Assembly: GCA_964399425.1 (NCBI GenBank)
Contig: CAYNQR010000002.1
Location: forward strand, 26,558-90,557
From: an uncultured Dehalococcoidales bacterium
Lineage (GTDB): Bacteria > Chloroflexota > Dehalococcoidia > Dehalococcoidales > UBA5627
Direction: 5' to 3'
Length of the DNA stretch: 64,000 nucleotides
Below are positions 13,834 to 42,701 of this stretch, in pieces. The notes beneath the pieces were generated by a model, which was not told where the DNA came from, ran no database searches, and saw only the letters and a program-made list of their open reading frames with translations. The first letter of the stretch is position 1. Each line of letters begins with the position of its first letter. The translations under genes and the position numbers were made by a program.

Positions 13834-13857
13834 TCTGATTTAAACGCGATTAATTTA

Positions 13858-13894
13858 ATACCCCGAACCTGAAAAAGGTTCGGGGTATATTTAT
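13858..13894 (+). terminator. hairpin terminator after mrp
   Basis: ATACCCCGAACC-tgaaaaa-GGTTCGGGGTAT is followed by ATTTAT. The stem is perfect at 12 bp but the U-tract is weak. Confidence 0.55.
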
Positions 13895-14099
13895 ATTAAC
13901 GAAAAGTCTGGTGAAATAATTACAAACAGCCTTGTTGCAGATAGCACTGCAAAGAAGTACTGAAAAGGTAATATAATTCCATTGTATTCTTAAAAAATAG
14001 GTTGACATTATGCCTGATTCTGTAATACTATTAGCTGTTTTGTAATTTTTACAAAAGTACCGATACTATATATTCTATCCGGATATTAGAGGAGTTTAG

Positions 14100-15584
14100 A
14101 TGAAGAGTAAAATAACCGGTATCCTTATAACACTGTCGTTACTGTTAAGTCTGTGCCTGGTGGCTTCCACTCAGGTAATGGCAGACCCGGTCGTTTATTA
14201 TGTCGATGATGATAATACAGGAAGCGAAGACGGAACTTTGGTTAATCCTTATAATACGATTACAGAAGCTGTTACCGCCGCTTCTAATGGTGATACGATT
14301 ATTGTTGCCGGCGGAACATATACAGAGACGGTAAACGTAGACAAGAGCGTGAAAATAAAAGTGCAAAGCCTTGAAACGGCAACTCTCACTCCATCCGGCG
14401 GCAATGGATTTTATATAACTGCCGATAATGTTACCATAGAAGGCTTCACCATAACGGGGGCTTATGATGCGATATATTTGGATGGTGTTTCAGGTTGTAC
14501 CATAACCGGCAACACGATTGGTGATTCTACTGATATATCAATCATGTTATCGTATGCAAATACATGTATCGTACAAGGGAATACCTGTTTGGATAATACG
14601 GTGTACGACATATATATATATTATTCAGAGGGCAATATTATACTGAACAATATATGCCAGGGTGATTATGCAATTTATCTTGAAGAATCGGCCAGAAATA
14701 ATATATCCGGCAACTCTTGTGAATATGGTGATTACGGCATCTATTTACTGGATGCCATAGATAATGTCTTCGTGGCGAATATATGCAGCAATTATGGTGA
14801 AGGTTATGGCATTTATATAACAACTGGTTCCTCAAATGTATTATATTCGCGCAATACTTTCATATTTAATACGCTGGATGATAATGACCGCGGTGTTTAT
14901 TTTAACGTTCCGGAGATAGATGCAAGCCTGATATATTTTAAAAATAATAATCTAACCAACAATTATACCGGTGTTGAATATTTTAGTGACACTTATTTTG
15001 TCGATGCCACTCAAAACTATTGGGCCGGTAATTGGAACGATGTTTTAGGTTATGTTAACATGGCCGATCGCCTGTATTCTCCCGTACTATATTCCATGAC
15101 GGAAATTGAGTCGTGGGTGACAATTATAACCACAACGTCTACCACAACAGCAACAAGCACATCGACTGAGACATCGACAATAACCAGCACGACCAGTTTG
15201 ACGGAAACGGCGACATTAACATCTACTGCTACCGAGACGTCTACAACTACTGAAACGAATACGGATACCGTTATAAGAACGATTTCCTCGATATCGACGG
15301 TTCCTGAAGGGACTGTTACCATGCTGGATCCGACGACGTTGACCGAAACGCAATCGGTAACATCTACGGATACGCAAACAAATACGTCAACTCAATTCGT
15401 AACAAGCACCGATACGCAATCCCTGACGATTACGGTTTCCGTTCCGCAAACTGTCAATCACACCACTACAACGACTTTGACTGCAACCGAAGAGACACTG
15501 GATTGGCCGCTGATAATCATTATCTCTGTAGCCGGGTTGCTTGCCGGCGGGTTGATAGTAACCATAATAATCAGAAAAATATAA
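14100..15584 (+). CDS. secreted right-handed beta-helix (NosD/PbH1-like) protein with Thr-rich stalk and C-terminal TM anchor
   Basis: It has a signal peptide. Repeated ...ITGNTI / ...GNTC / ...ISGNSC turns occur. A roughly 110-aa T/S/E-rich low-complexity region follows. A terminal hydrophobic helix ends in RKI. Confidence 0.7.
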   Translation: MKSKITGILITLSLLLSLCLVASTQVMADPVVYYVDDDNTGSEDGTLVNPYNTITEAVTAASNGDTIIVAGGTYTETVNVDKSVKIKVQSLETATLTPSGGNGFYITADNVTIEGFTITGAYDAIYLDGVSGCTITGNTIGDSTDISIMLSYANTCIVQGNTCLDNTVYDIYIYYSEGNIILNNICQGDYAIYLEESARNNISGNSCEYGDYGIYLLDAIDNVFVANICSNYGEGYGIYITTGSSNVLYSRNTFIFNTLDDNDRGVYFNVPEIDASLIYFKNNNLTNNYTGVEYFSDTYFVDATQNYWAGNWNDVLGYVNMADRLYSPVLYSMTEIESWVTIITTTSTTTATSTSTETSTITSTTSLTETATLTSTATETSTTTETNTDTVIRTISSISTVPEGTVTMLDPTTLTETQSVTSTDTQTNTSTQFVTSTDTQSLTITVSVPQTVNHTTTTTLTATEETLDWPLIIIISVAGLLAGGLIVTIIIRKI

Positions 15585-15637
15585 ACTCCTGAATCGGTTT
15601 CTTATGGTTCAGGCATTAGATATATAACAATAGCAAA

Positions 15638-15680
15638 GAGGCTGTCCCTGTACCGGGGCAGCCTCTCTCTTTTATTTTAT
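15638..15680 (+). terminator. intrinsic terminator
   Basis: GAGGCTGTCCC-tgtacc-GGGGCAGCCTC is followed by TCTCTCTTTTATTTT. Confidence 0.75.
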
Positions 15681-15727
15681 AACTGATGCCGGGGAATACT
15701 CTTTAACTATTTCTCCCAACCCACCAG

Positions 15728-15757
15728 GTTCTTCTCCCGATAAATCGGGAGAAGAAC
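15728..15757. terminator. perfect 13-bp hairpin between convergent genes (strand ambiguous)
   Basis: GTTCTTCTCCCGA-taaa-TCGGGAGAAGAAC lies 18 nt downstream of the acs stop. The only T-run (gacATTTTT) is on the plus strand. Confidence 0.4.
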
Positions 15758-15774
15758 GACATTTTTACCGGTAT

Positions 15775-18189
15775 CTACACCCTTTCGTTTACCAGTGTTT
15801 CAACGACGCTCGGATCTGCCAGTGTAGTGATGTCGCCCAGGTTGCTGATGTCGCCGTTGGCAATCTTGACCAGTATGCGGCGCATAATCTTGCCGCTGCG
15901 TGTCTTGGGCAAGCCCTCGGCAAACTGTATTTTATCAGGGCTGGCAATCGGACCGATGACCTTTCTGACGTGGTCTTTCAGTTCCTTCTCCATGGCTTTA
16001 CTCGGTTTTTCCCCATGCTTCAAGGTAACGAAAGCGTAAATGCCCTGTCCTTTAATCTCGTGGTGGATGCCGACGACCGCGGCTTCGGCTACCTTCGAAT
16101 TGGAAACCAGTGCGCTTTCCACTTCGGCAGTGCCGATGCGGTGACCGGATACGTTAAGCACATCGTCGATGCGTCCCATAATCCAGTAATAGCCGTCCTC
16201 ATCTTTCCTGGCTCCGTCTCCGGTGAAATACATACCAGGGAAGCGCGAAAAATAGGTATTTTTGAATTTTTCATGGTCTCCGTAGATGGTGCGCATCATA
16301 CCGGGCCACGGTTTCTTGATACACAGGTAGCCGCCTTCGTTGACATCGACCTCGTTTCCTTCGGCATTGACTATCATCAGTTCGACACCGGGAATGGGCA
16401 TAGTGGCGGAGCCCGGTTTGGTGGGAATGGCTCCCGGCAGGGGAGTTATCAGGTGACCGCCGGTTTCTGTCTGCCACCAGGTGTCGACAATCGGGCATTT
16501 CTCCCGTCCGATAACGCGGTGATACCACATCCATGCCTCGGGGTTGATGGGTTCACCCACAGTTCCCAAAAGTCTCAGGCTTGAGAGGTCGTGTTTCTTC
16601 GGCCATTCCTCGCCGTCTCGCATCAGGGCGCGTATAAGAGTGGGAGCGGTGTAGAAGATATTTATCTTGAATTTATTTACGATATGCCACATCCTGTCCG
16701 GTTTGGGGAAGGTCGGAGTTCCCTCGTAAATAAAGCTGGTTGCTCCTGTAGCCATCGGTCCGTAAACAACATAGCTGTGCCCGGTTACCCAGCCGATATC
16801 GGCGGTACACCAGAAGACATCATCGTCTTTGATATCGAACACCCATTTCATTGTTTGTACCGTATGCAGCAGATACCCTGCCTGCGTATGCATGACACCC
16901 TTGGGTTTGCCGGTGCTGCCGCTGGTATAAAGAATGAACAGCGGGTCTTCGGAATCCATAACCACCGGTTCGCAAATCGAGGAAATATCATCGGCTTCCA
17001 TTTCTTCGTGCCACCAGCGGTCTCTGCCTTCATATATTGTTATATGCAGCCCCAGTCTCTTGACGATAATCATATCTCTTACATTGGGGCAATCTTTCAT
17101 GGCGATATCTGCGGCATCCTTGCACCTGATAATCTGCCCGTTGCGGTGATAACCATCGGCAGTGATGACCAACTTGGAATTGCAATCCAGAATGCGGTCT
17201 CTCAAGGATTCTCCGCTGAATCCACTGAATACGATGCTGTGAATAGCCCCTATACGGGTACAGGCCAGCATGGCGAAGGCTGCTTCGGGAATCATGGGCA
17301 TATAAATGGTAACCGCATCGCCCTTTTTAACGCCGTGCTTCTTTAACACATTTGCGAACTTACATACCTCGTGATGCACCTGCTGGTAGGTAAACGTCCT
17401 GACTTCGTCTTCGCCTTCGCCCTGCCATACCAGCGCCGCTTTATTCTTGCGCCAGGTATTCAAGTGGCGGTCGAGGCAGTTATAACTGATGTTGATTTTG
17501 CCGCCGATAAAATATTTGATATTGATGTTTCCGCTGAATGAGTATTCGCGCACTTTATCCCATTTTTTATACCAGTCCAGTTGCTCGGCAAGGTGTCCCC
17601 AGAAGCCTTCGGGGTCTTTTACAGACCAGTTATATAAAGCTTTATAGTGTCGCATGCCGGAAACTGCCGCTTGATCGACAAATTCCTGAGGAGGGTTAAA
17701 TACTCTTTTTTCCTCCATCATGGAGGTTATTTCCTGGTGTTTTTCATCATGTTTAGCAGTAGCTGTTTCTGTTTCAGGGGTTTTTTTAGTGCCTAGCGCG
17801 TCGTCTATTACTTTACCCAGTTCGTCATTGGTAAAGGGAGCAGTCAGGTAATCGAAGGCTCCCGTTTTAATACATTCGGCAAGCGCATCTGCGGTGGGTT
17901 CGGCGGAGGTAATTACGATTTTAATATCCGGTTGTTTTTTAATTGCTTCGGCGAGCACTTCAAGACCGCTTTTAGCAGGGATTTCCAGGGAAATAACGGC
18001 CAAATCGAAATGTTCTGCTGCAATTGCAGATGCGGCTTTAATTCCGTCATCTACCGCTATGGTGCGATAGTTCCCTCGATTCAGGTAATCTGTAATGGAA
18101 CTGCGCAGACCTGCATCGGCATCAGCGACGAGTATAGAAAGGCTACCGACGGGGTTTTCTTTCGGGGGGGTGGATTTGTCTTGAGACAT
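15775..18189 (-). CDS. acs: acetyl-CoA synthetase with N-terminal degenerate receiver (REC) domain
   Basis: The C-terminal ~650 aa is a full AMP-forming Acs (YTSGSTGKPKG, PKTRSGKIMRR). The N-terminal ~130 aa is CheY-like (ILVADADAG, FDLAVISLEIP, KIVITSAEP, GAFDYLTAPF). The ATG at 18189 lies 6 nt after GGAGG. Confidence 0.88.
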   Translation of the reverse strand: MSQDKSTPPKENPVGSLSILVADADAGLRSSITDYLNRGNYRTIAVDDGIKAASAIAAEHFDLAVISLEIPAKSGLEVLAEAIKKQPDIKIVITSAEPTADALAECIKTGAFDYLTAPFTNDELGKVIDDALGTKKTPETETATAKHDEKHQEITSMMEEKRVFNPPQEFVDQAAVSGMRHYKALYNWSVKDPEGFWGHLAEQLDWYKKWDKVREYSFSGNINIKYFIGGKINISYNCLDRHLNTWRKNKAALVWQGEGEDEVRTFTYQQVHHEVCKFANVLKKHGVKKGDAVTIYMPMIPEAAFAMLACTRIGAIHSIVFSGFSGESLRDRILDCNSKLVITADGYHRNGQIIRCKDAADIAMKDCPNVRDMIIVKRLGLHITIYEGRDRWWHEEMEADDISSICEPVVMDSEDPLFILYTSGSTGKPKGVMHTQAGYLLHTVQTMKWVFDIKDDDVFWCTADIGWVTGHSYVVYGPMATGATSFIYEGTPTFPKPDRMWHIVNKFKINIFYTAPTLIRALMRDGEEWPKKHDLSSLRLLGTVGEPINPEAWMWYHRVIGREKCPIVDTWWQTETGGHLITPLPGAIPTKPGSATMPIPGVELMIVNAEGNEVDVNEGGYLCIKKPWPGMMRTIYGDHEKFKNTYFSRFPGMYFTGDGARKDEDGYYWIMGRIDDVLNVSGHRIGTAEVESALVSNSKVAEAAVVGIHHEIKGQGIYAFVTLKHGEKPSKAMEKELKDHVRKVIGPIASPDKIQFAEGLPKTRSGKIMRRILVKIANGDISNLGDITTLADPSVVETLVNERV

Positions 18190-18466
18190 GTTAAACCTCC
18201 TCAAATGAAAAATCTGTAATTTTTAAAATATTTAAATTTAACTAATTCAGAATCAAATAATATCAGTAAAAATATGTACTTGTCAATACTCATTTATGTG
18301 TACAAGCTATCACGAGATAGCTGGCTGTTCTTAAGAACGATAAAACACGACGGGCATCATCCCGATAAAACTTGTATTGTCTGTAAAATACTATTTGACA
18401 ACAATAATATATGTGTTAAAATAATAGTATGTATAAAACATAGTAATATTTAGATAAGGATGAAAC

Positions 18467-18961
18467 ATGGATGAAAGGGCGGTTGTAAAAGAAGAGCAGT
18501 TCAATATCCAGTTAAAGAAACTGAACGATTTCATTGCCGAATTATTGTCGGACGCGCCCGTTCTTATTGAAATGGAAGATAACCTGACGATGTCACAGTT
18601 ACGCGTGTTGTTACTTCTGAAAATAAACGGCAGGATGAAAATGACGCAGATAGCATCTTGTCTTACGATACATGTTTCGACGGCTACCGGTTTGGTGGAC
18701 AGAATGATAGCCAAAAAACTGATTCAAAGAGAAATGAACGAGGACGACAGACGCGTTATATTGTGCGCCTTATCCGATAAGGGACATAAGATTACGGATA
18801 GTATCTGGAAGATCGTTTGGGAAAATGCGCGCTCTCTTTCGGAGTATATAACATCGGAAGAATTAAATATTATCGGCAATTCTATCGATATTCTGCAAAG
18901 AGCCTGGATGAAAAGGAAAGAGAATCAGGACGGTGCAATATCGTCCGAACCTGTTAAATAA
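18467..18961 (+). CDS. MarR family transcriptional regulator
   Basis: A winged-HTH region is present (LTMSQLRVLLLLKINGRMKMTQIASCLTIHVSTATGLVDRMIAKKLIQRE..DDRRV). Confidence 0.85.
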   Translation: MDERAVVKEEQFNIQLKKLNDFIAELLSDAPVLIEMEDNLTMSQLRVLLLLKINGRMKMTQIASCLTIHVSTATGLVDRMIAKKLIQREMNEDDRRVILCALSDKGHKITDSIWKIVWENARSLSEYITSEELNIIGNSIDILQRAWMKRKENQDGAISSEPVK

Positions 18962-18995
18962 ATATTACATTGCAAATAATATTCGGGAGGGGTTT

Positions 18996-21614
18996 ATGTT
19001 TAAAGGATTGGGGCGGTTTGCCTCCAAATTCAAGTATTTGATAATTCTTTTCTGGGTGGCGCTGGCCGTTTCTATGGTGCTCTGGGCGCCGACGTTGAGT
19101 GAGACCGGTAAGCTGGATGTTTCCGGTTTTTTGCCCGAAGGCAGCGAATCGGGCAAGGCAGCTGAACTGATTGCCCAATATTTTCCGGAAGAAGCCACCG
19201 ATTCATCGGTAACTATCATTATTCACAATCCGGACGGTTTAAATGCCGGGGATATGGCTTTTACCCAGTCTTTTTCGCAGTATTTGAGCCAGCAGGGAGC
19301 GGCGGCTGGCATAGAGTCGGTAACATCCGTTTTTACCAACCCGGCTTTAGCTGCCAGCCTGGTATCTCCGGATAATACCACGATGTTGGTTAACATCGGG
19401 CTTAACATAACTACATCAGGAAAATCGTCCTCCGCTATTTTGGAATCGCTTGAAACATATATCGACGGCAACAAGGGTTCTTCATCTCTGCAGGTTTATA
19501 TCTCGGGCGAAGCCGGAATTATGAACGACCTGATGTCCACTATGGTCGAAAGCATCGATATCACGACGATTGTAACCGTAGTCCTGGTTATTGTATTATT
19601 GCTTTTAATTTACCGTTCTCCGATAGCGATGCTGGTACCCCTGTTGACCATAGGAACGGCTTATCTGATAAGCCGCGGCGTGCTGGGTTATATGGGGGAG
19701 TGGGGCATCAATCTGTGGTCTCAACTGGATGTATTTATTATCGTTCTCATATTCGGAGCCGGTACCGATTACTGCCTGTTTATGGTATCCCGCTATAAAG
19801 AGGAGTTGAAACGCCACACGACGCGACTGGATGCCCTGCGCGCTACCGTCGGTTCGGTCGGTTCCGTAATTGCGGCCAGCGCTTTCGCCGTGATTATCGG
19901 TCTGGCCGGTTTGACGGTTGCCGAATACGGCATGCTGCATACCATGGGTTTGGCGCTGGCGACGGCGGTTTTTATTACTCTTCTGGCTGCCCTGACTCTG
20001 AATCCGGCGCTTTCGGCTCTTTTCGGGAAGTTCATGTTCTGGCCCGGCAAACAGGCGGACGTATCCAGAGCCGGCAGTGGCGAGACGCGTGAGAACGGTT
20101 TCTGGCGCGGAGTAGCCAAGCTTACCACAAAACATTCTTTTGTTGTGGCTTTACTGATTATTATTGTACTGGCAGTCCCGTATATCCCGTACTTCCAGAT
20201 GGATACATCGTACGATACGCTCTCGGAGTTGGCGGACGATTCGGATTCGGTTAAAGGGTTTGCAATATTGAATGAACATTTCGATATCGGCAAAATGATG
20301 CCTTCCACCGTTATCCTGACAACCTCTTCGGGTAGCGCTACATCCAGCGCAGCCCTGGGGGAAATCGGGGAAATAACCGCTAAATTACTTTCCGTAGATG
20401 GTGTTTCCGGTGTCTTGTCCGTAGTTTCGCCTTACGGAACGGGAGAGCCGCTGGCTGAACTTACTGTGACGGGACAAATAAATATACTATTGCAGCAGCT
20501 GAACGCCGCAATCAGCGGCGCCGCAACCGACCCGACGGCGCTTTTCGCTTCCGATACGATGCAGATGTTCCAGCTTTTGGGTACCTATCTGGGCGAAGTG
20601 GGGAATGCCTTTCCCGAGGTTATTGCCGAACCGTCGTTTATTAATGCTGTAACGATTTTAAATAATATGAGCGCAACGCTGGCGACCGTCGATATCGAAA
20701 AACTGGACATGGCTTCCCTGGCGGCTCTTCAGGCGGCATTCCAGTCATATATCGGCGAATTTATCCAGGCTTTAACGGGACTGGGGGATTATTTCGTTGC
20801 AAAGGGAAATCCGTATTTTATCCCTCAAAGCTTGCTGGCTTTATATCCCGAACTCGGTCAGTTAATCAGTACCTTTATTTCGGCTGAAGGCGATGCCGCC
20901 AGGTTGATGATAACACTTGATGATTATCCTTATTCAGAGGCGGCTATGGACACGATACAGGAAATCAGGGCAGTGATTCATAACGGGGATTCTTACCAGT
21001 ATTTCGATATGAACGAATCGGCGGTAGGCGGCGCAACCTCCGCTATGTCGGATGTGCGCAGCGTACTGGAAACCGATTTTACCAGGATTATGATAGTGGT
21101 TCTGGTCGGTGTGTTTGTAGTATTGTGCCTGCTGCTGAGAAGCCTGATTGCTCCGCTGTTCATACTTGCTATCGTTACTTTCGCCTATGGTGCCACCATG
21201 GGGATATCAGCCTGGTTGTTTACTGATATACTCGGACATTCGGGAGTCAGCTTTGTCGTTCCTATTATTGTCTTTGTGTTGATGATAGCCCTCGGCGCCG
21301 ATTATAACATCTTCATGATGTCGCGTATCCGTGAGGAAGCCGAAACAAAGCCGATGAAAGAAGCGATTCGAAGCGCTATTATGAGCACCGGATATGTGAT
21401 TATGGCCTGCGGTTTGATACTGGGCGGCACTTTCCTGGCAATGATGGTATCTCCGATTCAGACGATGTTCCAACTGGGTGTCGCCGTAGCCATCGGCGTC
21501 TTTTTGGAGGCTTTCGTGGTGATTGTCTTCCTGCTGCCGGCTATAGCCAGCATCTTCGGCAGAGCAAGCTGGTGGCCTTTCGGGCATAAAAAACTTGGAA
21601 TCAAGAAAGATTAA
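18996..21614 (+). CDS. MMPL family (RND superfamily) transporter
   Basis: Two MMPL halves each carry GAGTDYCLF or GADYNIFMMSR motifs, with about 12 TM segments. The ATG at 18996 follows GGGAGGGG. Confidence 0.88.
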   Translation: MFKGLGRFASKFKYLIILFWVALAVSMVLWAPTLSETGKLDVSGFLPEGSESGKAAELIAQYFPEEATDSSVTIIIHNPDGLNAGDMAFTQSFSQYLSQQGAAAGIESVTSVFTNPALAASLVSPDNTTMLVNIGLNITTSGKSSSAILESLETYIDGNKGSSSLQVYISGEAGIMNDLMSTMVESIDITTIVTVVLVIVLLLLIYRSPIAMLVPLLTIGTAYLISRGVLGYMGEWGINLWSQLDVFIIVLIFGAGTDYCLFMVSRYKEELKRHTTRLDALRATVGSVGSVIAASAFAVIIGLAGLTVAEYGMLHTMGLALATAVFITLLAALTLNPALSALFGKFMFWPGKQADVSRAGSGETRENGFWRGVAKLTTKHSFVVALLIIIVLAVPYIPYFQMDTSYDTLSELADDSDSVKGFAILNEHFDIGKMMPSTVILTTSSGSATSSAALGEIGEITAKLLSVDGVSGVLSVVSPYGTGEPLAELTVTGQINILLQQLNAAISGAATDPTALFASDTMQMFQLLGTYLGEVGNAFPEVIAEPSFINAVTILNNMSATLATVDIEKLDMASLAALQAAFQSYIGEFIQALTGLGDYFVAKGNPYFIPQSLLALYPELGQLISTFISAEGDAARLMITLDDYPYSEAAMDTIQEIRAVIHNGDSYQYFDMNESAVGGATSAMSDVRSVLETDFTRIMIVVLVGVFVVLCLLLRSLIAPLFILAIVTFAYGATMGISAWLFTDILGHSGVSFVVPIIVFVLMIALGADYNIFMMSRIREEAETKPMKEAIRSAIMSTGYVIMACGLILGGTFLAMMVSPIQTMFQLGVAVAIGVFLEAFVVIVFLLPAIASIFGRASWWPFGHKKLGIKKD

Positions 21615-24196: not shown

Positions 24197-24444
24197 ATAT
24201 TTTCCTGTATACTCCTTTTATTGACAATAGATTATAGCAGTTATTCGATTGCGTGAAAATAGCACTCGCGTATCGAAATGAGACCGACGATAGTTATTCT
24301 TTAAATATTACGGAATTTATATTTTCCATAATTGTATAAGTCTACAGGGATAAATAATCATTATATCAATCGTAATTATTTATTAATAAGAGGAGTAATA
24401 ACGATATATTGACATTATTACAACGAGTATGTTATAAATGTATG

Positions 24445-24556
24445 ATTTCTCCGGAGCTGTTATGCCTAAGGAACGTTCTATGGCGGGCAGCCGGTAGATG
24501 AAATATCTAGACGGCACTACCGGAAACGGTTTTGCTTCCCGTTGGAAAAGGAGAAG
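24445..24556 (+). promoter_or_regulatory. candidate molybdenum-cofactor (Moco) riboswitch
   Basis: P1 pairs TTCTCC with GGAGAA. Internal elements are CTCCGGAGC, the GCCGgTAGAT/ATCTAgaCGGC hairpin, ACCG-GAAA-CGGT, GCTTCCCG and AAAAGGAG. A TTGACA-18-TATAAA promoter sits at 24409-24438. The element lies upstream of modABC. Confidence 0.55.
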
Positions 24557-24558
24557 AA

Positions 24559-24672
24559 ATGAATTATTGCCGTATAACGCCTTTCATATCAATTAAGAAC
24601 TCATGTCTTTTTTCTCTGTTTCCCGAACTTTGTCAGGTAGTCCTGTTTTACCGTCAGGTAAAGTGCGTCTGA
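24559..24672 (+). CDS. possible 37-codon leader ORF (MNYCRITPFISIKNSCLFSLFPELCQVVLFYRQVKCV)
   Basis: Its ATG lies 5 nt after AAGGAG, and that SD forms the 3' strand of the proposed riboswitch P1. There is no homology evidence. Confidence 0.2.
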   Translation: MNYCRITPFISIKNSCLFSLFPELCQVVLFYRQVKCV

Positions 24673-42424: not shown

Positions 42425-42701
42425 TTTATTAGAAAGGCGATGAGGGAGAAGAGTAGGTAGCAAGCTGCAGTCAGCGAGTCTGGTATGGTGGGAGCAGACC
42501 TGTAAATTCTATCGAAAATCACTCCGGAGCTGCCAACCGAAGGGCGTTGAAGCGAGTAGGCTTGGACGGATTTGTCCTCCGTTATCGATGACAGGGGCAT
42601 CATATATGCCTTATCGAGTGCCTCCGTTGTATGCGGGGGAATCCGGGTGGTACCGCGGGTTAATTTAATCCCGTCCCGAGTCAGGGGCGGGATATTTTTT
42701 T
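42425..42701 (+). promoter_or_regulatory. T-box leader (Ile specifier) with terminator
   Basis: The stem I elements are GGCGATGAGGGAGAAGAGTAGG. The specifier context is GAAAATCA, with ATC at 42518-42520. The T-box sequence AATCCGGGTGGTACCGCGGG lies at 42640-42659. The terminator is AATCCCGTCCC-gagtca-GGGGCGGGAT followed by a T7 run. Confidence 0.88.

Follow-up and report, generated by a model that had tools for sequence, protein, structure and literature searches.

What does a receiver (REC) domain do at the N-terminus of an acetyl-CoA synthetase (Acs), and what could it still do there once it has lost the residues through which receivers are phosphorylated? A gene in a 64-kb stretch of DNA from an uncultured Dehalococcoidales bacterium (hereafter the window) raises both questions. 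Acs is the gatekeeper of acetate assimilation, its unchecked activity drains ATP, and the accepted form of its post-translational control is lysine acetylation. The Dehalococcoidia, which are abundant in subsurface and anaerobic-digester habitats, assimilate acetate as a carbon source. Were Acs itself the output of a two-component phosphorelay, with the genes for its kinase and for an acetate channel alongside, this class would have a second mode of control that works by another mechanism. We consider it probable that the window protein carries a decayed pseudo-receiver, which arose after the loss of a partner kinase and was kept as a phosphorylation-independent module on an intact Acs, and that it comes from a kinase-linked REC-Acs family.

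Architecture of the REC-Acs gene and its family

The REC-Acs gene is complete and lies on the minus strand at 15775..18189 (804 codons plus stop), as defined by the list of open reading frames (ORFs), an ATG with a Shine-Dalgarno (SD) sequence and four in-frame Pfam domains. The open frame spans 15775..18204 on the same strand, with the stop codon ending at 15775; the ATG at 18189 is served by a strong SD, GAGGAGG, 6 nt upstream and gives an 804-aa protein. Response_reg (residues 19-128), ACAS_N (182-238), AMP-binding (243-635) and AMP-binding_C (689-767) all fall in one frame, and Response_reg (PF00072) scored 57.2 bits (cutoff 30.2; E=2e-15). The pseudo-receiver domain, delimited by Pfam PF00072, AlphaFold (AF2), Foldseek and mapping of the receiver quintet, occupies residues 18-132 (17794..18138, minus strand), and the AMP-forming Acs body with its acetylatable Lys767 occupies residues 157-804 (15778..17721, minus strand). 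Between them runs a disordered linker, residues 135-156 (17722..17787, minus strand), with pLDDT below 50 in both AlphaFold models and the highest dN of the protein. The initial annotation had described the linker as T/E/K-rich and about 35 aa long; the composition holds, and the disordered length comes down to about 22 aa because EITSMMEEKRVF, which is invariant in non-fused relatives, is already the Acs N-terminus. In keeping with this boundary, the alignment with PDB 8rpk begins at residue 155. No exact match to the window protein was on record in the public assemblies searched.

A homolog search with the full-length query recovered 85 full-length REC-Acs clusters at 90% identity among the best 120 matches, while the N-terminal 260 aa as query gave short partial proteins only. 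About 40 GTDB species (species-representative genomes) carry REC-Acs according to a scan seeded solely on the Acs N-terminal motif SMM[EDA]ExR[VI]F, which would miss fusions lacking that motif, and the fusion was seen only in Dehalococcoidia/Chloroflexota. When a profile of REC, linker and ACAS_N was run against 1.84 billion representatives, the best 150 matches were multi-REC proteins, whose repeat domains sum in score; clustering at 50% identity appears to have merged the full-length fusions with ordinary Acs in that representative set. Several loci were examined and rejected as fusions: the REC match belonged to a neighbouring NtrC-type activator gene in L045 and L047, to a neighbouring OmpR-type-looking regulator (judged by eye from the sequence) in L048, to a neighbouring REC-FNT fusion gene in L046 and to a stand-alone neighbouring REC gene in L033, and L050 had matched through the shared Acs N-terminal motif alone. 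The window protein has the full architecture that we propose for the family, namely a single ORF with REC, linker, ACAS_N, AMP-binding and AMP-binding_C. A REC-type N-terminal module on Acs had been flagged as uncharacterised, and no paper describing REC-Acs was found in the literature searched; the family is apparently undescribed so far.

The fusion might have been an artefact, in which a sequencing, assembly or frameshift error had merged acs with a small CheY-like gene beside it, or in which the true start lay downstream of the REC, and public annotations, which say plain acetyl-CoA synthetase, could mask a mis-called start; we found no support for this, and the sequence evidence effectively refutes it, since 85 independent full-length clusters, drawn from many samples and assemblers, have the same single ORF (the fusion is therefore neither chance nor an assembly artefact), the SD at the upstream ATG is strong and is conserved with the first codons across 11 loci, no in-frame ATG with an SD was found ahead of the Acs body, and every member has its linker in frame. 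REC and Acs are thus not separate genes.

The Acs body

Residues 178-801 matched TIGR02188, the NCBIfam equivalog for Acs, at 1013 bits (cutoff 724.95), and window residues 169-803 matched the S. enterica Acs structures 1pg3/2p2f at 824 bits. The body is also closely related to the solved Chloroflexota AcsA (8RPK/8RPL). Its catalytic motifs are intact, with YTSGSTGKPKG at 421, DTWWQTETGG at 569, GRIDD at 672 and PKTRSGKIMRR at 761 (Lys767); the ANL core motifs, the acetate-pocket Trp and the catalytic/acetylatable Lys (S. enterica K609 equivalent) are all present. A complete AMP-forming Acs, as first read from the translation, is confirmed by these matches, and we predict from the motifs that it is a catalytically intact, acetate-activating enzyme.

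Lysine acetylation of Acs is carried out by Pat/AcuA acetyltransferases and reversed by CobB/AcuC deacetylases at the equivalent of Lys609. The corresponding target motif, PKTRSGKIMRR, is intact in the window Acs and invariant, with Lys767, across the REC-Acs family, so classical acetylation control is still possible. [quoted passage not shown] No acetyltransferase or sirtuin was found among the window ORFs scanned, which were the larger ones up to about 50 kb.

A receiver fold without the phosphotransfer residues

The five conserved positions of receivers, the DD-D-T/S-K quintet, were mapped by alignment of the window REC with CheY, Spo0F, NtrC and 98 family members. Asp23 stands at D12, Ala24 at D13, Ser67 at D57, Ser95 at T87 and Ala117 at K109, with Tyr114 at the switch position Y106. 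Three of the five quintet residues are therefore lost (Asp23-Ala24 / Ser67 / Ser95 / Ala117), and the phospho-acceptor is not an Asp. Alignment and structure agree that Ala24 occupies the metal-binding Asp position and Ala117 that of the conserved Lys. The initial annotation had read Ser for the acceptor, Ala for the Lys and a partly retained acidic pocket from a by-eye alignment, and all three readings stand: canonical relatives hold Asp in the column of Ser67, Asp23 of the acidic pair is kept, and the family alignment leaves no misplaced Asp at the acceptor site. Asp63, within FDLAVIS, was considered as an alternative acceptor and rejected; it sits at the N-terminal start of strand b3, on the domain edge opposite the active-site loops. 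With the residues at D13, D57 and K109 replaced, phosphorylation in the usual way is not expected, as had been suspected, and Asp phosphorylation of the window REC is predicted to be impossible because these catalytic residues are gone.

The domain folds as a receiver in the AF2 model, as five strands and five helices in a (beta-alpha)5 arrangement with pLDDT ~90, which settles the question of whether a CheY-like domain really precedes Acs. Foldseek superposed it on Spo0F with a TM of 0.92 and an rmsd of 1.3 Å over 118 columns, and in the AlphaFold models the quintet residues cap strands b1, b3, b4 and b5 at their C-terminal ends, as in receivers. The PF00072 score above the gathering threshold and this fold together place the region among receiver domains. 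It also belongs to the pseudo-receivers (PsRs), defined as computationally recognised receivers (PF00072) without key residues for phosphotransfer (Bourret et al. 2025, PMC12632262). Atypical regulators and PsRs include FrzS, HP1043, ChxR and the pseudo-REC of ShkA; DD2 is non-acidic in ~80% of PsRs, the Y-T pair is kept in 47%, and most of the characterised atypical regulators are orphans (PMC12632262). The window REC shares with them the PF00072 match, an incomplete quintet, a non-acidic DD2, an orphan gene and a retained Y-T pair. It differs in being attached to an enzyme instead of a DNA-binding or scaffold output, and in having an origin that can be followed back to canonical orthologues, the kinase still being present at a sister locus. 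AMP-binding or Acs outputs receive no mention in the 2025 pseudo-receiver review, according to which bacterial pseudo-receiver mechanisms “remain a mystery” (PMC12632262).

Linkage to a membrane kinase and an acetate channel

The canonical receiver is kept in ~82 of the 98 aligned family members, and degenerate receivers are confined in this alignment to the close relatives of the window protein, with exceptions such as P0194 and P0008. One conserved membrane histidine kinase (HK) was found within 3.2 kb of REC-Acs at 26/27 informative canonical loci, versus 0/3 degenerate loci under a strict flank rule (Fisher p=0.001, nominal, kinship ignored); at the degenerate loci with sequence past the 3' end of the gene, the partner HK was absent from 7/7. 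The kinase is of the polytopic-membrane HisKA type and has a conserved R(S/N)PHFWII motif. Its position and orientation vary among the canonical loci and the linkage persists. A SatP acetate channel gene lies at most 250 bp downstream at 17/26 canonical loci versus 0/7 degenerate ones (p=0.003, kinship ignored). The window and its clade have neither the HK nor the SatP linkage of the family.

These arrangements suggest that in the ancestral family the canonical REC most likely takes its phosphoryl group from the adjoining, dedicated polytopic-membrane HisKA kinase, often in the company of a SatP-type channel, and that acetate activation, an ATP-costly step, would thereby be under direct phosphorelay control in the canonical members. 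We infer phosphotransfer in those members from gene linkage and intact residues, and any direction given to the effect of the REC on Acs has the same standing, as does the present role of the pseudo-receiver.

Response regulators with enzymatic outputs are well established and include CheB (REC-methylesterase), PleD/WspR (REC-GGDEF), RpfG (REC-HD-GYP) and PorX (REC-PglZ phosphodiesterase). In REC-Acs proteins, as in these, a single polypeptide runs from a receiver at its N-terminus through a flexible linker to a catalytic domain at its C-terminus; the canonical members also keep the full DD-D-T/S-K quintet and adjoin a HisKA kinase, and PorX chains were among the top structural matches of the window REC in Foldseek. 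The difference lies in the output, an acetyl-CoA synthetase of the ANL superfamily and of central metabolism, and no paper on a response regulator with an acetyl-CoA synthetase output was found in the literature searched. The window protein differs further in that it is predicted not to be phosphorylatable on Asp. Two-component control of acs is known from CrbS/CrbR in Vibrio and Pseudomonas, where the sensor has an SLC5 domain and the transcription factor CrbR activates acs expression (PMC5436829, PMC5715377). The parallel with REC-Acs is that a two-component system governs, or in REC-Acs would govern, the use of acetate by Acs and that its sensor is associated with a carboxylate transporter (the SLC5 domain in the one, the SatP neighbour of canonical REC-Acs in the other). 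CrbR acts on transcription, whereas the receiver of REC-Acs is fused to the enzyme, which implies post-translational control.

At the canonical sister locus, L014, the gene order is Acs-HK-Mrp-MutS2; the five degenerate loci that reach Mrp/MutS2 have Acs-Mrp-MutS2 and no HK. The Acs-Mrp slot of the window (13834..15774), which is the kinase slot in L014, holds a beta-helix surface-protein gene at 14100-15584 and no kinase, and a beta-helix gene likewise follows Acs in L009. No HK or other REC was found elsewhere in the 64-kb window, and no HK within 7 kb of the gene at 11 degenerate-clade loci, among which a weak HK-like match 7.4 kb upstream in L009 is the only one. The MAGs are incomplete, and the gene for the partner kinase may lie elsewhere in these genomes. 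We propose that in the window lineage the kinase gene was probably deleted from the slot between Acs and Mrp, that the catalytic residues of the receiver were replaced after this loss, which would have put an end to Asp phosphorylation, and that the REC was retained and remodelled, most likely locked in one conformational state. Erosion of the active site does not always go with loss of the kinase, for P0008 has lost the DD pair and keeps an adjacent kinase. P0194, which degenerated independently (D13 -> K, D57 -> G), has no nearby HK, like the window clade.

Phylogeny and selection on the degenerate receivers

The degenerate clade is monophyletic (NJ bootstrap 100%), has L014 as its sister (99.5%) and is nested within the canonical EDD group (99%). 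That the window REC has decayed within a larger family, most of whose members are canonical and kinase-linked, is of more interest than a pseudo-receiver alone. The clade is marked by the substitutions D13 -> A, D57 -> S, K109 -> A/V/I and, at D+2, Arg -> Glu. Its specific invariant residues are D25, A55, D101, K108, D113, Y114 and G133, with S67 and E69 fixed; counted over the aligned members, Ser67 is present in 11/12 and Asp25 in 12/12.

The REC of this clade might be a functionless relic that has decayed neutrally since the kinase was lost and will eventually be deleted, while Acs acts as a stand-alone enzyme. Its catalytic residues are gone, and the degenerate clade has a dN(REC)/dN(Acs) ratio of 4.5-8, versus 0.7-4.3 for the canonical clades; relative to Acs, the degenerate RECs evolve ~3x faster than canonical ones, a relaxation of constraint of about 3-fold. 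Relaxation, however, falls short of neutrality: omega(REC) is ~0.16-0.20, well under 1, a value from the two unsaturated pairs because dS was saturated for most pairs. Complete loss has occurred in at least one nested lineage, P0200, which shows that Acs can do without the REC; the REC of P0131 is badly eroded with internal deletions, and many Dehalococcoidales Acs proteins carry no REC at all. The 12 aligned degenerate RECs, on the other hand, contain no frameshift, stop or large deletion despite saturated synonymous sites, the core of the fold is kept and confidently modelled by AF2, and the fixed S67 and E69 are among invariant positions that are new to the clade. Selection on the degenerate REC is relaxed yet still purifying, and we regard a mere relic as unlikely.

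The orthologues form a graded series, from a canonical REC with kinase, through loss of the DD pair with the kinase kept (P0008) and loss of both acceptor and kinase (the window clade, P0194), to deletion of the REC (P0200). Because the readout is an easily assayed enzyme, the effect of a receiver on its output after phosphorylation is lost, and the order of the losses, become testable. For the window protein we favour a retained pseudo-receiver whose present role would most likely be that of a phosphorylation-independent intramolecular modulator or an oligomerisation module of Acs. Phosphorylation-independent action had been proposed from the residues, and the proposal gains support from the kinase missing from the syntenic slot, the lack of any HK or other REC in the window and the purifying selection on the REC.

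Possible new inputs to the degenerate receiver

The conservation of Ser67 across the clade leaves room for a new covalent input. REC-Acs might form a class of response regulators that has so far gone unrecognised, with a membrane kinase encoded beside SatP that directly switches Acs activity by phosphorylation, and the REC of the window clade might have gained a new input at its remodelled site (Ser67, Glu69, Asp25), through Ser phosphorylation, cis-acetylation by its own acetyl-AMP or binding of a metabolite (e.g. acetyl phosphate). The window protein would then be a self-sensing acetate-activating enzyme, a combination that we hold to be improbable.

A related alternative is that the REC is still covalently switched by new chemistry, either at Ser67/Ser95 by a Hanks-type Ser/Thr kinase or O-acetylation, or at Asp23/Asp25 via acetyl phosphate or an unlinked kinase. 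Phosphorylation of a Ser in the D position has, to our knowledge, no precedent among receivers. The near-constant Ser67 and constant Asp25 would suit such switching, as would the retained Y-T coupling pair (Ser95, Tyr114), but the metal-binding DD2 residue is gone, as is the phosphate-binding Lys in most members, so a phospho-Ser would not be coordinated canonically. Ser/Thr phosphorylation and Lys acetylation are documented for the atypical regulator GlnR (PMC12632262). In the account cited here, lysines of CheY can be acetylated in vitro by E. coli Acs, with an uncertain role in vivo (Barak et al. 1992, 2004, via PMC2883070); this is a documented functional interaction of a receiver with Acs, although E. 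coli makes them as separate proteins. At the 11 loci the gene has no neighbouring kinase of any type, and we think covalent switching of this kind quite unlikely.

Upstream control region

If the pseudo-receiver has indeed lost its phosphorylation input, regulation may have shifted to other layers: the acetylatable Lys767, a strongly conserved promoter that a divergent MarR gene has in common with REC-Acs, and possibly a hairpin that sequesters the SD. A Sigma-70-like promoter, TTGACA-18-TATTAT with a TG extension, lies at 18257..18286 on the minus strand and is almost invariant at 11/11 degenerate-clade loci. The candidate SD-sequestering hairpin (18150..18212, minus strand) is conserved at the nucleotide level; it would pair the SD region with codons 6-11 and leave the AUG in the loop. 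Its predicted energy is -13.4 kcal/mol (z=-2.5), and the sequences are so nearly invariant that a covariation check is impossible. The divergent MarR and MMPL gene pair (18467..21614, plus strand), which has its intergenic control region in common with REC-Acs, is present at 10/11 degenerate-clade loci; L006 shows neither gene in an upstream flank of only 607 bp. A repeat search of the intergenic region returned AT-rich palindromes only, and TGTACA boxes were spotted by eye in the intergenic alignment.

The receiver-acetyl-CoA synthetase fusion

The gene for the acetyl-CoA synthetase with an N-terminal receiver (REC-Acs) lies on the minus strand of the window as an open reading frame at 15775..18204, and translation from the ATG at 18189 gives an 804-aa protein. 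The initial annotation had described an Acs fused to a pseudo-receiver. The fusion is real, with four Pfam domains in this one frame: Response_reg (residues 19-128; 57.2 bits against a cutoff of 30.2), ACAS_N (182-238), AMP-binding (243-635) and AMP-binding_C (689-767). A start codon downstream of the REC was not supported; the ATG at 18189 has GAGGAGG 6 nt upstream and precedes the REC. The protein scored 1013 bits with the NCBIfam AcsA equivalog TIGR02188 (cutoff 725), and S. enterica Acs structures matched the Acs body, residues 169-803, at 824 bits. Four motifs are preserved in this body: YTSGSTGKPKG at 421 (P-loop), WW at 569 (acetate pocket), GRIDD at 672 (hinge) and PKTRSGKIMRR, which contains the acetylatable Lys767. 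None of the solved structures matched to the protein spans both the REC and Acs halves.

In predicted models of the full-length protein and of the REC by itself, residues 18-132 form a (beta-alpha)5 fold of five strands and five helices (pLDDT about 90), followed by a disordered linker (135-156). The REC model superposed on Spo0F with a TM score of 0.92 (rmsd 1.3 A, 118 columns), in agreement with a receiver fold, and also on the receivers of FleR, NtrC1, PmrA and PorX. We mapped the quintet and switch residues by aligning the window REC with CheY, Spo0F, NtrC and 98 family members. CheY D12, D13, D57, T87, Y106 and K109 align to Asp23, Ala24, Ser67, Ser95, Tyr114 and Ala117, respectively, and in the models these residues sit at the C-terminal ends of strands b1, b3, b4 and b5. 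Alignment and models both confirm the earlier reading of Ser at the phospho-acceptor position and Ala at the conserved Lys, and no misplaced acceptor Asp was found, Ser67 being the residue aligned to D57. The proposal that this REC is not phosphorylated in the usual way is upheld, since the acceptor Asp is replaced; judged from the sequence, Asp phosphorylation of the window REC-Acs is excluded.

A mostly canonical, kinase-linked family

The main value of the analysis lies in the family behind the window gene, which is mostly canonical and kinase-linked and in which the change from receiver to pseudo-receiver can be traced. The best 120 matches to the full-length query included 85 full-length REC-Acs clusters (about 800 aa, 59-92% identity). 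Where sources were given, these were labelled Dehalococcoidales, Dehalococcoidia or Chloroflexota, and where named, they were annotated simply as acetyl-CoA synthetase. With each GTDB species represented by one genome, a scan yielded about 40 true-fusion loci, some ending at contig edges, all in Dehalococcoidia or Chloroflexi MAGs (one record is labelled "Chloroflexia"); the scan was seeded on a single Acs N-terminal motif, making this spread a lower bound. The quintet is fully canonical in about 82 of 98 fusion sequences (DDDSGFK, 42; DDDTAYK, 29; EDDTAYK, 7; plus others), and degenerate quintets in this set belong to the window protein and sequences closely related to it, apart from a few isolated cases. 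Full-text literature searches found the REC-Acs fusion nowhere described, and AMP-binding outputs go unmentioned in a 2025 review of pseudo-receivers, according to which their mechanisms "remain a mystery" (PMC12632262).

Canonical loci share a single conserved kinase of the HisKA/HATPase_c type, about 400 aa long, full-length copies of which matched two seed kinases with phmmer E-values of 1e-116 to 1e-216. It was located no more than 3.2 kb from REC-Acs in 26 of 27 informative canonical loci (for example L001 7263-8528, L002 7350-8576, L014 2381-3649 and L031 12451-13635), in one of three arrangements: on the same strand and upstream, on the same strand and immediately downstream, or on the opposite strand and about 57 bp downstream. 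The polytopic N-terminus (about 180 aa, 4-5 TM segments, without a large loop) carries a conserved R(S/N)PHFWII motif, and this membrane region matched no Pfam family. Many canonical loci have a second kinase, of HisKA_3 plus PAS type, adjoining a REC-GerE regulator that is its expected NarL-type partner. As the HisKA_3 kinase has its own partner, the HisKA kinase is left for REC-Acs, and the two likely form a pair. In 17 of 26 canonical loci, REC-Acs is followed at 40-200 bp by a gene for the acetate channel SatP (Gpr1/Fun34/YaaH).

The R(S/N)PHFWII kinase represents an uncharacterised intramembrane sensor type, always found beside REC-Acs. At L002 (1-9792 and 12466-13398), signalling genes crowd around the canonical REC-Acs: four stand-alone REC genes, a REC-GerE regulator and two kinases. 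The locus also encodes a 775-aa fusion of a REC with a Fer4/FAD/NAD-binding subunit, next to NiFe-hydrogenase genes, and the joining of RECs to enzymes may be more widespread in these Dehalococcoidia.

Loss of the kinase and of the acceptor

The conserved kinase and SatP were both missing at the window locus and at the other ten loci of the degenerate clade, and neither a kinase nor a further REC was found anywhere in the 64-kb window. A divergent MarR-MMPL pair (window 18467-21614) lies upstream in 10 of these 11 loci, the upstream flank of L006 being too short to show it, and was found at none of the canonical loci. Mrp and MutS2 lie downstream of Acs in the six degenerate loci with sufficient flank. 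In the same chromosomal slot, the canonical locus L014 reads Acs-HK-Mrp-MutS2 (HK, histidine kinase), and five degenerate loci covering these genes read Acs-Mrp-MutS2, without the kinase. A beta-helix gene follows Acs at the kinase position of L014 in the window and in L009; the window copy (14100-15584) encodes a beta-helix/NosD-like protein. Judged by eye, its translation has hydrophobic segments at the N-terminus (signal-like) and at the C-terminus (anchor-like), as well as a long region rich in Thr and Ser.

A bootstrapped neighbor-joining tree of the Acs body recovered the degenerate clade as monophyletic (100%), with L014, whose REC is canonical, as its sister (99.5%), and both nested within the canonical EDDTAYK group (99%). 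Because L014 keeps the kinase in the slot and the degenerate loci lack it, kinase loss and acceptor loss map to one branch. Independent cases were informative but did not all point the same way. In P0194 (D13 to K, D57 to G), SatP was kept and no kinase lay within about 3.5 kb on either side; the REC of P0131 is heavily eroded, with no kinase in the 10 kb upstream, the only side sequenced; P0008 lost the DD pair alone and still has the kinase. P0200 (L054 238-2238), nested inside the canonical fusion group, is an Acs without any REC; SatP lies next to it, and the ORF upstream is unrelated. It represents a complete REC loss, a third evolutionary outcome.

Two further loci combine receivers with non-fused Acs genes. 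L033 1302-1982 encodes a stand-alone canonical REC closely like that of REC-Acs, with a sub-threshold Frankia_peptide match in its C-terminal tail (28.6 bits; cutoff 48). A non-fused Dehalococcoidia Acs is encoded 2 kb downstream of it, a proximity that may reflect a split or precursor arrangement. In a Thermodesulfobacteriota MAG, one gene (L046 4708-5979) joins a receiver to a formate/nitrite transporter (Pfam Response_reg and Form_Nir_trans), and a non-fused Acs lies 4 kb downstream of this gene.

Constraint on the degenerate receiver

At matched Acs divergence, dN(REC)/dN(Acs) was 4.5-8 in the degenerate clade compared to 0.7-4.3 in canonical clades, and constraint on the REC is relaxed about 3-fold. 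For the two pairs with unsaturated dS, omega was 0.16 and 0.20 for the REC and 0.02-0.04 for Acs. Position-by-position comparison indicated that the active-site rim was rewritten and then fixed: D13 became Ala, D57 became Ser and the D+2 Arg became Glu (each of the latter two in 11/12), and the T+2 Tyr became Asn or Glu. The clade retains the fold core and the Y-T pair, and has gained clade-specific invariant residues (D25, A55, D101, K108, D113, Y114 and G133). The substitution pattern is one of remodelling under constraint and not of free decay.

Expression control region

The region 18150-18300 of the window (minus strand) is nearly invariant in DNA sequence across 11/11 degenerate loci; it comprises the promoter, a leader of about 70 nt that is AT-rich, the SD and the first 11 or so REC-Acs codons. 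In the same loci, synonymous sites elsewhere in the gene have reached saturation. In the predicted fold, codons 6-11 base-pair with the SD and the AUG is left in the loop (-13.4 kcal/mol, z -2.5, with an equally good fold in 2 of 200 shuffles), and near-invariance of the sequences leaves no covariation signal for this candidate translational control hairpin. Such a hairpin would explain the conserved MS[QK]DKS[AT]PPKE tail as an RNA-level constraint. In the intergenic region that REC-Acs shares with MarR (18257-18466), TGTACA-type palindromes lie on both sides of the Acs -35 box and suggest a putative MarR operator.

Proposed mechanism

By analogy with the enzyme-output regulators CheB, PleD and PorX, canonical REC-Acs would follow standard logic: the membrane kinase would phosphorylate the REC, changing Acs activity or oligomeric state, and this switch would match acetate activation to supply through SatP. 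The window REC, retained and constrained, most likely serves as a fixed-state modulator or oligomerisation module of Acs, and control would pass to Lys767 acetylation and to expression. The phosphorylation-independent role suggested in the initial annotation is thus supported as the likely one, with the Asp acceptor lost and the REC retained under constraint. Acs is known to be under acetylation control, including a solved Chloroflexota AcsA, which is non-fused, unlike the window protein (PMC11255334). CrbS/R controls acs transcriptionally (PMC5436829), and acetylation of CheY by Acs in vitro is reported (PMC2883070).

Other elements in the window

Two ordinary RNA elements were also observed in the window. 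An ABC transporter operon (SBP_bac_11, permease and ATPase) is preceded by a Moco (molybdenum/tungsten cofactor) riboswitch (24437-24569), and a gene for a class I aminoacyl-tRNA synthetase by a T-box leader (42431-42681). The synthetase was taken to be IleRS by size and domains, Pfam giving the I/L/M/V class only.
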